DNA from: a virus
Taxonomy: Duplodnaviria; Heunggongvirae; Uroviricota; Caudoviricetes
Virus record (IMG/VR): IMGVR_UViG_3300012281_000001
Reading direction: 5' to 3' (one strand)
DNA length: 52,086 bases
Of the stretch, positions 27,143-31,168 are shown one piece after another. Each line of letters starts with the position of its first letter. Position 1 is the first letter of the stretch. A program made the translations under genes and the position numbers. The notes beneath the pieces were generated by a model that made no database searches, was not told the origin of the DNA, and was given only the letters and a program-made list of their open reading frames with translations.

Positions 27143-28174
27143 ATGTCCAATTTACTGACCGTACACCAAAATTTGCCTGCATTACCGGTCGATGCAACGA
27201 GTGATGAGGTTCGCAAGAACCTGATGGACATGTTCAGGGATCGCCAGGCGTTTTCTGAGCATACCTGGAAAATGCTTCTGTCCGTTTGCCGGTCGTGGGC
27301 GGCATGGTGCAAGTTGAATAACCGGAAATGGTTTCCCGCAGAACCTGAAGATGTTCGCGATTATCTTCTATATCTTCAGGCGCGCGGTCTGGCAGTAAAA
27401 ACTATCCAGCAACATTTGGGCCAGCTAAACATGCTTCATCGTCGGTCCGGGCTGCCACGACCAAGTGACAGCAACGCTGTTTCACTAGTCATGCGGCGGA
27501 TCCGAAAAGAAAACGTTGATGCCGGTGAACGTGCAAAACAGGCACTAGCGTTCGAACGCACTGATTTCGACCAGGTTCGTTCACTCATGGAAAATAGCGA
27601 TCGCTGCCAGGATATACGTAATCTAGCATTTCTGGGGATTGCTTATAACACCCTGTTACGTATAGCCGAAATTGCCAGGATCAGGGTTAAAGATATCTCA
27701 CGTACTGACGGTGGGAGAATGTTAATCCATATTGGCAGAACGAAAACGCTGGTTAGCACCGCAGGTGTAGAGAAGGCACTTAGCCTGGGGGTAACTAAAC
27801 TGGTCGAGCGATGGATTTCTGTCTCTGGTGTGGCTGATGATCCGAATAACTACTTGTTTTGCCGGGTCAGAAAAAATGGTGTTGCCTCGCCATCATCCAC
27901 CAGCCAGCTATCAACTCGCGCCCTGGAAGGGATTTTTGAAGCAACTCACCGATTGATTTACGGGGCTAAGGATGACTCTGGTCAGAGGTACCTGGCCTGG
28001 TCTGGACACAGTGCCCGTGTCGGAGCCGCGCGAGATATGGCCCGCGCCGGAGTTTCAATACCGGAGATCATGCAAGCTGGTGGCTGGACCAACGTAAATA
28101 TTGTCATGAACTATATCCGTAATCTGGATAGTGAAACGGGGGCGATGGTGCGCCTGCTGGAAGATGGTGATTAG
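27143..28174 (+). CDS. cre: Cre tyrosine recombinase
   Basis: 343-aa protein MSNLLTVHQNLPALPVDATSDEVRKNLMDMFRDRQAFSEHTWK... recognised as P1 Cre; loxP about 420 bp upstream. Confidence 0.98.
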   Translation: MSNLLTVHQNLPALPVDATSDEVRKNLMDMFRDRQAFSEHTWKMLLSVCRSWAAWCKLNNRKWFPAEPEDVRDYLLYLQARGLAVKTIQQHLGQLNMLHRRSGLPRPSDSNAVSLVMRRIRKENVDAGERAKQALAFERTDFDQVRSLMENSDRCQDIRNLAFLGIAYNTLLRIAEIARIRVKDISRTDGGRMLIHIGRTKTLVSTAGVEKALSLGVTKLVERWISVSGVADDPNNYLFCRVRKNGVASPSSTSQLSTRALEGIFEATHRLIYGAKDDSGQRYLAWSGHSARVGAARDMARAGVSIPEIMQAGGWTNVNIVMNYIRNLDSETGAMVRLLEDGD

Positions 28175-28224: not shown

Positions 28225-28536
28225 ATGAGAAAGGATTTCAACATCGACGGAAAATATGTAGTGCTGTCTGTAAGCACTAATATTCAGTCGCCAGCCGTCA
28301 TTGTCACTGTAAAGCTGAGCGATAGAATGCCTGATATTGACTCAATATCCGTTGCGTTTCCTGTCAAAAGTATGCGTAGTGCTGAACATTTCGTAATGAA
28401 TGCCACCGAGGAAGAAGCACGGCGCGGTCTTGGTAAAGTGATGTCTGAGTTTGGCGAATTTCTGGGGCACGTTAACAAAGCCCTCACAATCAGTTCAGCA
28501 AGGTCCAAAGCGTTAACAGCTTCCATGATGAAATAA
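28225..28536 (+). CDS. cra: cre-associated protein
   Basis: 103-aa ORF between cre and ref with an operator upstream; symbol by position. Confidence 0.5.
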   Translation: MRKDFNIDGKYVVLSVSTNIQSPAVIVTVKLSDRMPDIDSISVAFPVKSMRSAEHFVMNATEEEARRGLGKVMSEFGEFLGHVNKALTISSARSKALTASMMK

Positions 28537-28540
28537 AAAA

Positions 28541-28561
28541 AGCCTGGCAAGGAGCCAGGCT
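28541..28561. terminator. hairpin immediately after cra
   Basis: AGCCTGGC-AAGGA-GCCAGGCT preceded by an A-run; U-tract only on the minus-strand reading. Confidence 0.45.
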
Positions 28562-28667
28562 GCACAAAAGAGCGGGTTTGTATTCCGCATCCAATCAATC
28601 AAGAAGGAGTATAGCACACAGGTACTGAAGTGAAAAAATGTGATTCGCGATAAACAAAATATCTACC

Positions 28668-28697
28668 ATTGCTCTAATTGATTGCTATAATTGAGCC
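28668..28697 (+). promoter_or_regulatory. tandem overlapping C1-operator-like sites with embedded -10 (ref promoter region)
   Basis: ATTGCTCTAATTGATTG followed by ATTGCTATAATTGAGCC; TATAAT at 28686-28691; consistent with C1 control of ref. Confidence 0.6.
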
Positions 28698-28751
28698 GCA
28701 GTTTTTGTCAACTACGAAGACGTTGCCATTACTTCACTCCTTGACATCATT

Positions 28752-28777
28752 GGCGGCCATTAGGCCGCCTTTTTTTT
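28752..28777 (+). terminator. strong rho-independent terminator 7 nt upstream of the ref start codon
   Basis: GGCGGCC-ATTA-GGCCGCC followed by TTTTTTTT. Confidence 0.75.
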
Positions 28778-28783
28778 GACCAT

Positions 28784-29344
28784 ATGAAAACAATCGAACA
28801 AAAAATTGAACAGTGCCGCAAGTGGCAGAAGGCAGCCAGAGAACGAGCGATCGCTCGGCAACGGGAGAAGTTGGCTGATCCGGTCTGGCGAGAATCTCAA
28901 TATCAGAAAATGCGGGATACTATCGACCGCCGTATCGCTAAACAGAAAGAACGCCCACCAGCCAGCAAAACGCGGAAAAGCGCGGTAAAAATAAAATCTC
29001 GTGGCTTGAAGGGGAGAACACCAACGGCGGAGGAACGGCGCATCGCCAATGCTCTTGGCGCTCTCCCCTGCATTGCCTGCTATATGCATGGAGTAATATC
29101 TAATGAGGTGTCTCTGCACCATATCGCCGGTCGTACCGCGCCGGGTTGTCATAAAAAGCAATTGCCACTTTGTAGATGGCACCACCAGCATGCAGCACCG
29201 GCTGAAGTAAGAGCAAAATACCCCTGGCTGGTCCCTGTTCATGCCGATGGTGTGGTTGGAGGCAAGAAAGAATTCACCCTGCTGAACAAGTCAGAGATGG
29301 AGTTACTGGCTGACGCCTATGAGATGGCAAACATCATGCACTAA
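28784..29344 (+). CDS. ref: Ref recombination enhancement function, HNH-type endonuclease
   Basis: 186-aa protein with basic N-terminus and C-terminal Cys/His cluster (CIACYMHG...HH...CRWHH); matches P1 Ref. Confidence 0.85.
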   Translation: MKTIEQKIEQCRKWQKAARERAIARQREKLADPVWRESQYQKMRDTIDRRIAKQKERPPASKTRKSAVKIKSRGLKGRTPTAEERRIANALGALPCIACYMHGVISNEVSLHHIAGRTAPGCHKKQLPLCRWHHQHAAPAEVRAKYPWLVPVHADGVVGGKKEFTLLNKSEMELLADAYEMANIMH

Positions 29345-29380
29345 TAAATATATTATTTTTAATGATAAATGATTGACAAC

Positions 29381-29404
29381 TGACAAGTGACTTCAGTCAG
29401 AATC
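29381..29404 (+). promoter_or_regulatory. late-promoter-like element in the ref-mat intergenic region
   Basis: TGACAAGTGACTTCAGTCAGAAT; TGACT..AGTCA inverted repeat plus -10-like CAGAAT. Confidence 0.45.
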
Positions 29405-29494
29405 ATCACACGCCCGGTACGGATGGATCCCTTTTCAAATATTCCATGGACGGCACAGTCTGAGTACCGGGCGCTACCTTCAGTTGTATTGCTA

Positions 29495-29521
29495 AGCCGC
29501 CGCTGGTGGCTTTTCTTTTTT
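29495..29521 (+). terminator. rho-independent terminator 13 nt upstream of the mat start codon
   Basis: AGCCGCC-GCT-GGTGGCT (one G-U pair) followed by TTTTCTTTTTT. Confidence 0.6.
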
Positions 29522-29533
29522 GTAGGGGGCGCT

Positions 29534-30175
29534 ATGGATAAGAAAATATGCGTTGTTTCGATGAGCGTCGGCAAACCGGCGTCAATGACTGCTGCATGGA
29601 TCAATAACGAGCTGATAATGGCTGAGCGGACCAGCTACCCTGAACGCCGCCGCGACATGGAACTCCAGCTGCTGCGCGAATTGCGAGAAAAAGAGGAAAA
29701 GGGTTTTATCGTGCTGGTGGAAGAGGAAAACAGCTTTATTACTGGTCGAGTTGGCCAGCGTGTAAGGTTGCGCGATCCCTTCATGAACGGCAGGCCGGTA
29801 CTAATTGAGGCAATGCAGATTTATAAGGAGCTAGAACGCCAGAAAGCAATCAAGTTACCGCGCAAGGAATCCGGCAAATACATCCTCCACCAAAGCATCT
29901 TCGATTCCGAACACGATAAAAAAGGCGATGAATTTTTCAACATCAACTGGAGCGAAATAACGACAGAGCATGTTCTGACGTTACTATGTTGCTTTGCGAC
30001 GGAATACAACAACGTTGCCAGCGCCGACTACATCAGGGCAATGGTTGGAGAAATTGATGCCCGCCAAGAACCGTCGTTACTAAGCTCCCTTGTGAATATA
30101 ATTCAAGCTACTCATGAAATGACCGCACGGAAAGTGCCTCAAGGTTCATTAACCGGCAGAGATAATTATCTTTAA
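29534..30175 (+). CDS. mat: maturation-control protein
   Basis: ATG 29534 within ORF 29387..30175, 4 nt after AGGGGG; symbol by position after ref. Confidence 0.45.
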   Translation: MDKKICVVSMSVGKPASMTAAWINNELIMAERTSYPERRRDMELQLLRELREKEEKGFIVLVEEENSFITGRVGQRVRLRDPFMNGRPVLIEAMQIYKELERQKAIKLPRKESGKYILHQSIFDSEHDKKGDEFFNINWSEITTEHVLTLLCCFATEYNNVASADYIRAMVGEIDARQEPSLLSSLVNIIQATHEMTARKVPQGSLTGRDNYL

Positions 30176-30217: not shown

Positions 30218-31168
30218 TTAATCAATAAATACACGGAATGGCTCAAGCATCCCTTCAGGATCTTTATCCTCGTCACCAAGTGATATTAGTCTTCTGGCGA
30301 GTAGTTTTACGTCATCATCATCTTTAATGAAGCCAACCTGATCATTATTAAAATAGATATCGATTATTTTTAGGATTTGCTCTTGTGTAAAATGATTGAA
30401 TTTTAATAACTTTGCTACAACTCGATGTGTTGTGGCAAAACTGCCTGAGCGGCGTAATTCATCTATAGTGAAATTAACTTCCATTTCCGCTAAGTTACTG
30501 GCTTGAGGAAAGTGCTCACCTATAAACTCTGATAAGCGGGCATAGATATGTGGTTCTGAATCTTTCTTCTTTTTCCACTCGTACTTCAAATACTCATTCA
30601 TATCATCCTTTATAAAGGCACTTTTATAATCACCATCTTCAGTTATAATGTATATATCCTCTCCGTTTGGTATCGCCTTTAGCAAACACTCCCAATTGAC
30701 TGCATCACCATATGATTTATTTTTACCCGGAGGGTTGCCAAGATCGAATCGGCGTTTCCCTTTTTCTATTGTTTCATCATCAGCCTCTATCTTAGACGCT
30801 GCATCAAAAATCCTTTTAATTACAACATCGGCAGCTAAAGACTCTTCTTTAAATAAGTTCTGTATATCGGTAATAATTTCATTCTTTAGCCGACTAGCTT
30901 CTATAACCTTATCATTAAATAGTGAATGTTTTTCATGCTGCCTGAAAATCTGTGGTAGCGCGGGCTTGTAGTCTTTTGCAATTTCCTTTATGGTTTCAGA
31001 GAGAACTTTAGAACGATTTCTCCAGAACTCATTCACTAAAAGTTCTGGCAACCAAAGTTTTAAACGACCATATTGATGTAAGGCAAATACTTTATCTAGC
31101 TCATCTAGTTTATCCTTACCCATTCGATAAAATTCCAAATATAGATTTGTATCAATAAAAACATTCAT
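30218..31168 (-). CDS. PIN-like putative nuclease with C-terminal helical extension
   Basis: 316-aa ORF, ATG after AGGATG; N-terminal VFIDTN strand with D6, later GDAVNWE (D155) and ITEDGD (E177/D178/D180) acidic motifs; visibly AT-rich versus flanks; sits where P1 has res-mod. Confidence 0.7.
   Translation of the reverse strand: MNVFIDTNLYLEFYRMGKDKLDELDKVFALHQYGRLKLWLPELLVNEFWRNRSKVLSETIKEIAKDYKPALPQIFRQHEKHSLFNDKVIEASRLKNEIITDIQNLFKEESLAADVVIKRIFDAASKIEADDETIEKGKRRFDLGNPPGKNKSYGDAVNWECLLKAIPNGEDIYIITEDGDYKSAFIKDDMNEYLKYEWKKKKDSEPHIYARLSEFIGEHFPQASNLAEMEVNFTIDELRRSGSFATTHRVVAKLLKFNHFTQEQILKIIDIYFNNDQVGFIKDDDDVKLLARRLISLGDEDKDPEGMLEPFRVFID

Follow-up and report, generated by a model that had tools for sequence, protein, structure and literature searches.

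A conserved, covarying leader RNA ending in an intrinsic terminator precedes the late gene mat in a P1-like phage and its relatives

In the P1-like phage sequence of IMG/VR record IMGVR_UViG_3300012281_000001 (52,086 nucleotides (nt), the whole of which is called the window here and provides all coordinates unless stated otherwise), the late gene mat is preceded by a leader, at positions 29405–29533, which is a real, non-coding, and selectively constrained RNA element. P1 is a classic model phage and a founder of the large phage-plasmid family, and its genome is 99.2% identical to the window over positions 28600–29600, which makes the window P1-like. A first-pass annotation, made from the letters of the window alone, had described a late-promoter-like element, a structured leader, and an intrinsic terminator directly in front of mat, and had taken this layout for that of a transcription-attenuation switch or of a separate RNA of about 110 nt. 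The observation is confirmed and is more general than could be seen from one sequence. With regard to function, a gate in which a factor or the polymerase itself mediates antitermination in cis, with an RNA of ~112 nt as the default product, is tentatively favored, at somewhat less than an even chance.

The leader is built around an inverted repeat of 10 nt, 100% complementary, between CGCCCGGTAC at 29411–29420 and GTACCGGGCG at 29464–29473, the arms being 43 nt apart; among 5000 dinucleotide-shuffled versions of the leader, 0.24% contained a perfect repeat of 10 bp or more. The repeat proposed in the first-pass annotation is thus exact, with ten of ten positions paired; its second arm had been placed there at about 29462–29471, two nucleotides too far to the left. 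In the plus-strand RNA, repeat search, folding, and covariation identify CGCCCGGUAC as the 5′ arm of a long-range stem, and repeat search and covariation identify GUACCGGGCG as its 3′ arm. The RNA from 29409 to 29521 folds at −39.4 kcal/mol (z = −2.7) into this long stem enclosing two hairpins, followed by the terminator, and the fold signal is weaker for the longer stretch 29400–29540 (z = −1.2). The first hairpin, Ha (29423–29447, plus strand), appears in both the minimum free energy and the centroid folds and consists of the stem AUGGA/UCCAU and a 15-nt loop, UCCCUUUUCAAAUAU, with a conserved U-rich motif. This loop motif is kept in P1-type relatives, and an equivalent hairpin is predicted for the D6, Klebsiella, and Xenorhabdus types; the Ha stem itself is weakly informative. 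A second, small hairpin, Hb (29448–29461, plus strand; GGAC...GUCU, with GGC/GCC in relatives), is predicted from the fold, and its pairing register is not kept in the JK004 type, so that its support is weak.

The junction domain formed by these stems is connected to the terminator by an unstructured linker (29474–29493, plus strand), the length of which ranges from 5 to 28 nt between lineages and the sequence of which is not conserved between them. The terminator itself (29494–29521, plus strand, from a terminator scan) comprises a hairpin at 29494–29512, AAGCCGCC-GCU-GGUGGCUU in RNA (AAGCCGCC-GCT-GGTGGCTT in DNA), with an 8-bp stem and a free energy of −11 kcal/mol, and a U-tract reaching 29521, UUCUUUUUU (TTCTTTTTT in DNA), with a T-tail score of 3.9. 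Thus, a G+C-rich hairpin is followed directly by a U-tract, as is characteristic of intrinsic terminators, and it occupies an equivalent position in each of the lineages examined. The first-pass annotation had also placed a terminator before the mat ATG; it is present and canonical, although it starts at 29494 rather than 29495 and its distance to the ATG at 29534 is 12 rather than 13 nt. In the scan of the plus strand between ref and mat, it is the only terminator-like site. Part of its U-tract, UUUUCUU (29511–29517), is complementary to mat codons 3–5, AAGAAAA (29540–29546); in the read-through mRNA, this pairing could bracket the Shine-Dalgarno sequence and the start codon, or the complementarity may simply reflect the conserved Lys-Lys/Gln-Lys-Ile N-terminus of Mat.

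Relatives of the element were gathered from phage, plasmid, genome, viral-contig, and metagenome collections. In the P1-type group, in which Mat is 57–100% identical and which includes Cronobacter phage JK004 and the loci L178–L181 and L237, the interior of the junction is nearly invariant and the long stem varies by compensation: the 5′ and 3′ arms CGCCCGGUAC and GUACCGGGCG of P1 correspond to AGCCCGGUGC and GCGCCGGGCU in JK004, UACCCGGCGC and GCGCCGGGUA in L179, UGCCCGGUGC and GCACCGGGCA in L181, and GCCCGGUGCC and GGUGCCGGGC in L237. In an alignment of 14 P1-type sequences, 98.6% of the cells of the 10-bp stem are paired, four of the ten pairs show two-sided compensatory changes, and all of the one-sided changes give G·U or U·G; when the 3′ partner is slid by 1–3 columns as a control, pairing falls to 35–50%. 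Since these G·U intermediates are compatible only with RNA from the plus strand, the selected molecule has the same polarity as mat.

Moreover, the same layout is found ahead of mat in at least six further lineages (D6-like, Klebsiella-type, L129-type, L134, L148, Xenorhabdus-type, and L238), recurring where Mat is only 33–57% identical. The order is that of a −10 element, 7–17 nt, a long-range stem of 7–10 bp with an interior of 42–52 nt, a linker of 5–28 nt, the terminator, the Shine-Dalgarno sequence, and the start codon; within the interior, a predicted hairpin loop displays a U-rich motif (CUUUUGACAA or a variant of it), and the terminator is a GGCCGC...GCGGCC hairpin with a U-tract. The sequences of the long stems differ wholly between lineages, as in GGCUCCC/GGGAGUC, UGUUCCC/GGGAACA, GCGAACC/GGUUCGU, GUUCUGG/CCAGAUA, and GCUGUUCA/UGAACAAGC. 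In a stem-anchored alignment of 12 sequences of the D6, Klebsiella, and Xenorhabdus types, all seven pairs show two-sided changes, 92% of the cells are paired compared with 30–56% after sliding, and every one-sided change gives G·U. The first-pass annotation had made its case depend on conservation of the stems among P1-like phages, and compensatory changes are indeed found both in these phages and beyond them. The alignments were anchored on the stem by hand, with N as the gap symbol, and therefore lean towards structure, and plain MAFFT followed by RNAalifold recovered only the terminator, and not the long stem, from the D6-type leaders. Nevertheless, the gap between true and slid partners (92–99% against 30–56% paired) argues that the covariation is real despite hand anchoring. 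The common descent of the D6-type and P1-type elements is suggested by synteny and architecture only, since a covariance model built from D6-type elements does not detect the P1-type element.

Selective constraint can be also observed at the level of nucleotide diversity. Among 69 distinct P1-like haplotypes, diversity is 0.010 for the whole leader, 0.008 for the junction, and 0.007 for the terminator, and reaches 0.068 in the promoter region, 0.030 at second codon positions of mat, and 0.145 at third codon positions. No relevant match was found to Rfam 15 in this region of the window, and none at E ≤ 1 in seven relatives, so that the element is a candidate for a new RNA family absent from Rfam.

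The non-coding nature of the leader is at variance with the P1 reference annotation. GenBank records AF234172 and NC_005856 start mat at record position 2716, which is 29423 in the window (past ref, the P1 record coordinate plus 26707 gives the window coordinate), inside the Ha stem (29423–29425), and this gives a protein of 250 aa and makes the whole leader coding. According to this annotation, the interval would encode the N-terminal 37 residues of Mat, and the stem and terminator would be incidental. The frame is open from 29423 in the window and in P1 (an open reading frame (ORF) runs downstream of ref from 29387 to 30175), and the upstream ATG keeps an open, in-frame path to mat in 62 of 141 P1-type loci. 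However, it is frameshifted in 78 loci and interrupted by a stop in one, as a consequence of indels of 1 and 2 nt between ATG 29423 and ATG 29534; covariation, in addition, tracks base pairing rather than codons. The Prokaryotic Genome Annotation Pipeline (PGAP) and RefSeq begin the gene at the equivalent of 29534, with 213 aa, on identical, near-identical, and related plasmids, and distant Mat homologues all align from residues 1–3 of the 213-aa form (Cronobacter phage JK004, 71% identity; Klebsiella plasmids, 36%; phage D6, 33%; a Vibrio plasmid, 27%). A Shine-Dalgarno sequence read from the sequence, AGGGGG (29524–29529, plus strand), precedes 29534 and has a counterpart at the equivalent place in every relative, whereas nothing resembling one precedes 29423, an ATG that lies only ~13 nt from the likely transcript start. 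The coding explanation is therefore hardly credible. On these comparative grounds, 29405–29533 is the non-coding 5′ leader of mat, the true start is the ATG at 29534 (coding sequence 29534–30175, plus strand, 213 aa), and the data support the conclusion that the GenBank P1 records start mat 111 nt too far upstream (29423–29536, record positions 2716–2829). The start used by the first-pass annotation, 29534, is thus better supported than that in GenBank.

This correction alters the gene model used in transcriptomic and CRISPR interference (CRISPRi) studies, because the reference annotation hides the leader inside a mis-started mat and, in studies based on the gene model of NC_005856, reads from the leader are assigned to mat. 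As a separate observation on start sites, in the Klebsiella plasmid CP052282 (L009), PGAP places the mat start 138 nt downstream of the homologous start. In the same locus (~893–1020), the sequence UUUUGAC/CAAUUU in the leader loop is complementary to AAAUU-GA-GUCAAAA around the start of mat; the 12 base pairs, interrupted by a bulge of 2 nt, include the UUG start codon. As a mechanism, cis pairing between the Ha loop and the start region of mat was considered and discarded on inspection of the sequences of relatives, in which the 12-bp match occurs in the Klebsiella type only and is not conserved.

Transcription of the leader seems to depend on an already known promoter. The late-promoter-like element proposed at 29381–29404 is present and corresponds to the late promoter LPmat annotated in AF234172/NC_005856, which can be aligned with the ten other late promoters of P1; it is therefore a known feature rather than a new one. 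LPmat fits their −22/−10 pattern, its −22 box matching (A)ACAAGTGACT, and has the sequence features of a late promoter dependent on Lpa, namely a 9-bp −22 box (consensus near AACAAGTGACT) located 4–5 bp before a −10 hexamer. In the P1 annotation, the −22 box is AAGTGACTT (29385–29393, plus strand) and the −10 hexamer CAGAAT (29398–29403, plus strand) is common to LPmat and to an overlapping predicted sigma70 promoter, Pmat, the −35 element of which is TTGACA (29373–29378, plus strand). From the usual spacing of ~7 nt to the −10 element, the mat transcript probably starts near 29410. At 130 nt, the leader of LPmat is longer than those of the other ten late promoters (22–88 nt), and LPmat is the only one of the eleven with this layout.

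The promoter region shows some additional features. The motif TTGAC occurs 19–26 nt upstream of the mat −10 element in lineages of the D6 and Klebsiella types as well as in P1 and JK004 (L007, L008, L009, and L121–L149; 29373–29377 in the window), a spacing that exceeds the normal −35 distance in most of them, and it is not seen in the mat promoters of the Xenorhabdus type or of L237. The P1 record also annotates a predicted site for the C1 repressor, the operator Omat, at 29335–29352 (record 2628–2645; no strand given). On the minus strand, a sigma70-like promoter, TTGTCA-16-AATAAT (29352–29379; score 10/12), would direct leftward transcription antisense to ref, and its −10/start region abuts or overlaps Omat, the position of which is more typical for repressing this antisense promoter than Pmat.

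The position of the terminator, between promoter and start codon, determines how mat could be expressed. The gene upstream of mat is divergent in D6 and in plasmid CP086663, and loci of the JK004 type have an additional terminator ahead of the mat promoter, so that the leader terminator must act on transcripts from the mat promoter. Across lineages, only 12–40 nt separate the terminator from the start codon, which leaves no room for another promoter; consequently, mat would be expressible only by read-through. In the Klebsiella and Vibrio types, mat overlaps with the genes following it, which are homologous to the baseplate/tail genes 26 and 25, and by gene order the terminator in these types is a gate for a structural late operon. 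Hence, a covarying RNA and a terminator head a late gene in P1, and a baseplate/tail operon in relatives.

The available expression data come from a P1vir RNA sequencing (RNA-seq) table with values per gene, given as log2 relative to an uninfected control, in which the annotated mat region includes the leader (PMC8201110 supplement). In this table, ref behaves as an early gene (8.3 and 10.0 at 10 and 30 min), and the annotated mat region shows late kinetics (5.1 and 11.6, respectively), like prt, lyz, and pacB (PMC8201110). The mat region is thus ~9-fold below ref at 10 min and level with other late genes at 30 min, and the difference at 10 min indicates that little early ref transcription runs on into mat. 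These values fit tight early termination with substantial late read-through, with reads of leader and coding sequence inseparable in the table.

The same layout could be also explained by a constitutive damper, in which the terminator only lowers the output of a strong promoter, for instance, to keep levels of Mat, as a potentially toxic nuclease-like protein, low, the junction serves to stabilize the 5′ end or insulate the terminator, and no regulation takes place. A strong promoter followed by a leaky terminator could account for the RNA-seq data; a terminator with nothing competing against it is predicted in every lineage; and a CRISPRi knock-down of mat cut plating only to 0.28, which suggests that little Mat is needed. 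The predicted structure of Mat would be in line with this proposal as well. Mat matches no Pfam family, and its AlphaFold model (predicted local distance difference test score 70, predicted template modeling score 0.65) finds its best Foldseek matches among nuclease domains of large terminases (G20c, P74-26, D6E, E217, SPP1, and T4 gp17; E 1e-4 to 3e-2, TM ~0.45). The model thus points to an RNase H-like fold, with which a role in DNA maturation would fit. Because of this resemblance, Mat is also unlikely to be an RNA-binding autoregulator, a role for it that was considered and set aside. However, a passive stem leaves the conservation of the loop sequence and the very low diversity of the junction unexplained, and in phages of the Klebsiella and D6 types the same terminator precedes baseplate/tail genes that require substantial expression. 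A damper without regulation is accordingly judged rather unlikely, yet it deserves serious attention.

Conventional attenuation, based on competition between an antiterminator helix and the terminator (as in riboswitches, RAT/BglG-type systems, or leader-peptide systems), was the first suggestion to be made for this leader, and a structured leader with a terminator right before the Shine-Dalgarno sequence is indeed its usual layout. Folding was repeated with the terminator forbidden for four P1-type and nine other leaders. In the P1 type, this costs 10–15 kcal/mol, the junction stays intact in the best terminator-free fold of all sequences, and the 5′ arm of the terminator remains unpaired, so that no alternative antiterminator fold was found in these leaders. 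In some D6-type lineages, GCGG-containing segments near the 5′ end could pair with the terminator arm GGCCGC; however, these candidate pairings are of 4–7 bp and are not conserved. Since the terminator-free fold keeps the junction and the linker varies in length, the alternative-fold switch is rejected. A leader peptide was likewise discarded, because no Shine-Dalgarno sequence precedes ATG 29423, the D6 and Klebsiella types lack the ATG, and no frame is conserved, being broken by indels within and between lineages (including one of 1 nt inside the junction between P1 and JK004). Moreover, no riboswitch or leader family of Rfam matches. Altogether, attenuation of the classical kind seems very improbable.

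Given that no alternative hairpin competes with the terminator, the junction is proposed to be a cis-acting antitermination signal. Under this antitermination gate, transcription from Pmat/LPmat would begin near 29410 and first produce a three-way-junction RNA of ~65 nt, in which the stem 29411–20/29464–73 would surround Ha, with its conserved U-rich loop, and Hb. After a spacer of 20 nt, the polymerase would reach the intrinsic terminator 12 nt before the mat ribosome-binding region and would stop there by default, releasing an RNA of ~112 nt with both ends base-paired. Mat would be made from read-through transcripts only, and in relatives of the D6, Klebsiella, and Vibrio types the whole mat-26-25 baseplate/tail operon would likewise require read-through. 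A phage or host factor could be bound by the junction domain, or the domain could contact the transcribing polymerase directly; in either case, this polymerase would become resistant to the terminator late in infection, with the ~112-nt RNA as a by-product. Antitermination has been suspected in P1 without direct proof (PMC10695390). A further, more speculative and unlikely proposal is that the junction represents a self-contained antitermination RNA of the P1/D6 phage-plasmid family, either put-like or read by a polymerase modified by Lpa/SspA, such that only late-promoter transcripts pass, and that the released ~112-nt RNA might act in trans.

Several results weigh against the antitermination gate. 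Even with filters switched off and E values of up to 10 allowed, the covariance model R1, built from 12 D6-type elements with the terminator excluded, gave no match to the P1-type leader of the window, and in the Vibrio relative neither a long stem nor a U-tract is clear. The per-gene RNA-seq values would be explained equally well by a very strong LPmat followed by a terminator that leaks constitutively, and the predicted fold of Mat is nuclease-like and not that of an RNA-binding regulator. The resemblance of the Ha loop to boxA is at chance level. Finally, the transcript ends, the regulated nature of read-through, and the identity of any factor are parts of this mechanism that we infer.

A discrete RNA of ~112 nt ending at the terminator is the expected default product, so that the separate RNA of about 110 nt proposed in the first-pass annotation is what the promoter-leader-terminator layout would yield (110–112 nt, with ends deduced from the same layout). 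Premature termination within 5′ untranslated regions (UTRs) gives rise to an established class of small RNAs (sRNAs), and this RNA could itself be the product, as a stable, late, trans-acting sRNA whose conserved loop binds an mRNA or a protein, mat being expressed by incidental read-through. In favor of this proposal, the RNA is equipped with a promoter of its own and with a canonical terminator, its 5′ stem begins within 1–2 nt of the presumed transcript start and its 3′ end is the terminator hairpin, its loop sequence is kept while the stems covary, and an A/U-rich stretch and the U-tail adjoin the terminator hairpin. Nevertheless, a search for targets in the P1 genome, limited to perfect-type matches, found complementarity of at most 12–13 nt, at chance level, and none involving the Ha loop. 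The U-tract of the terminator is weak in the L129 group, and the linkage to the mat start (12–40 nt from the terminator) is invariant across all lineages whatever the neighboring genes, which a free-standing sRNA would not need. A trans-acting sRNA as the primary product is thus considered unlikely.

Comparison with known systems places the mat leader close to several of them without full agreement with any. In lambdoid phages, the late unit consists of a late promoter, an RNA of ~60–200 nt that ends at an intrinsic terminator, and late genes expressed by read-through only. The PR′-6S RNA-tR′ unit governed by Q resembles the mat leader in its late promoter, its short terminated RNA, and its terminator just before the late genes, all of which are found here. 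However, the lambdoid promoter is constitutive and its P1 counterpart is Lpa-activated, 6S RNA does not feature structural selection whereas the mat leader RNA is under it, and the layout occurs at one P1 late promoter only. No Q homologue is annotated in P1, nor is a Q-binding element known there, and no search aimed at Q was made. The put RNAs of HK022, which act in cis to render the polymerase resistant to terminators without a protein factor and consist of two tandem stem-loops, share with the mat leader a compact, promoter-proximal, covarying RNA (~65 nt in this case) upstream of terminators and without a competing antiterminator, and by analogy the junction could act on its own polymerase. 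In contrast to put, the mat leader has a long closing stem around two hairpins, shows no sequence similarity to it, and belongs to a phage-plasmid rather than a lambdoid phage.

The lambda nut site and the boxA of rrn operons are reminiscent of the mat leader in their single-stranded U-rich motif beside hairpins in a promoter-proximal transcript. A boxA/nut site was therefore examined, after checking the rrn leader sequence and with shuffled leaders as controls, and was discarded: the loop CUUUUGACAAUUUAAC resembles the rrn boxA region, but its match to GCUCUUUAACAA is 7–9 of 12 positions without gaps, no better than in shuffled leaders (P mostly 0.2–1.0), and no N-like protein was identified. 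With sRNAs derived from 5′-UTRs or of the Hfq type, the leader shares its own promoter, a Rho-independent terminator with a U-tail, a protected 5′ end, and an exposed conserved loop; it differs in being permanently fused to the mat start region and in having no target found in the P1 genome. The P1 c4 and P4 CI RNAs are also small structured RNAs that control downstream expression from within a leader, but they pair as antisense RNAs with defined target sites and, according to the P1 annotation, result from the processing of longer transcripts, and no such repeated sites occur at the mat leader, which shows no match to the Rfam C4 family. No description of the leader was found in the literature, in a search that did not cover the P1 genome paper or Walker & Walker 1983. 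If the leader is an antitermination element, P1 would have its first defined antitermination device, and with one promoter, one RNA domain of 65 nt, and one terminator, the leader offers a compact substrate for testing antitermination in this phage.

The genes preceding mat in the window are cre (27143–28174), c8 (28225–28536), and ref (28784–29344). The first-pass annotation had seen the same arrangement in front of ref and mat. At ref, a promoter, a hairpin, GGCGGCC-ATTA-GGCCGCC, with T8 (28752–28777), and the ATG at 28784, 6 nt further on, are all present; however, the hairpin is absent before the ref homologues of the three lineages L121, L122, and L129, in contrast to the mat leader, which is kept. 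Hence, the ref leader was discarded as a parallel case. No Shine-Dalgarno sequence is visible before ref in this stretch (28752–28783), and its hairpin starts right after the annotated −10 element of P1ref. Between c8 and ref, a strong terminator-like site on the minus strand (28541–28561; 8-bp stem and T7) would stop leftward transcription from the ref side. Downstream of mat, the minus strand of the window encodes an ORF of 316 aa with a PIN_12 domain (30218–31168) where P1 has res/mod, and in other P1-like plasmids the same slot is occupied by RelA/SpoT, SIR2, YaaC, or DUF4145 genes; the position right after mat is thus a variable slot, probably for defense genes.

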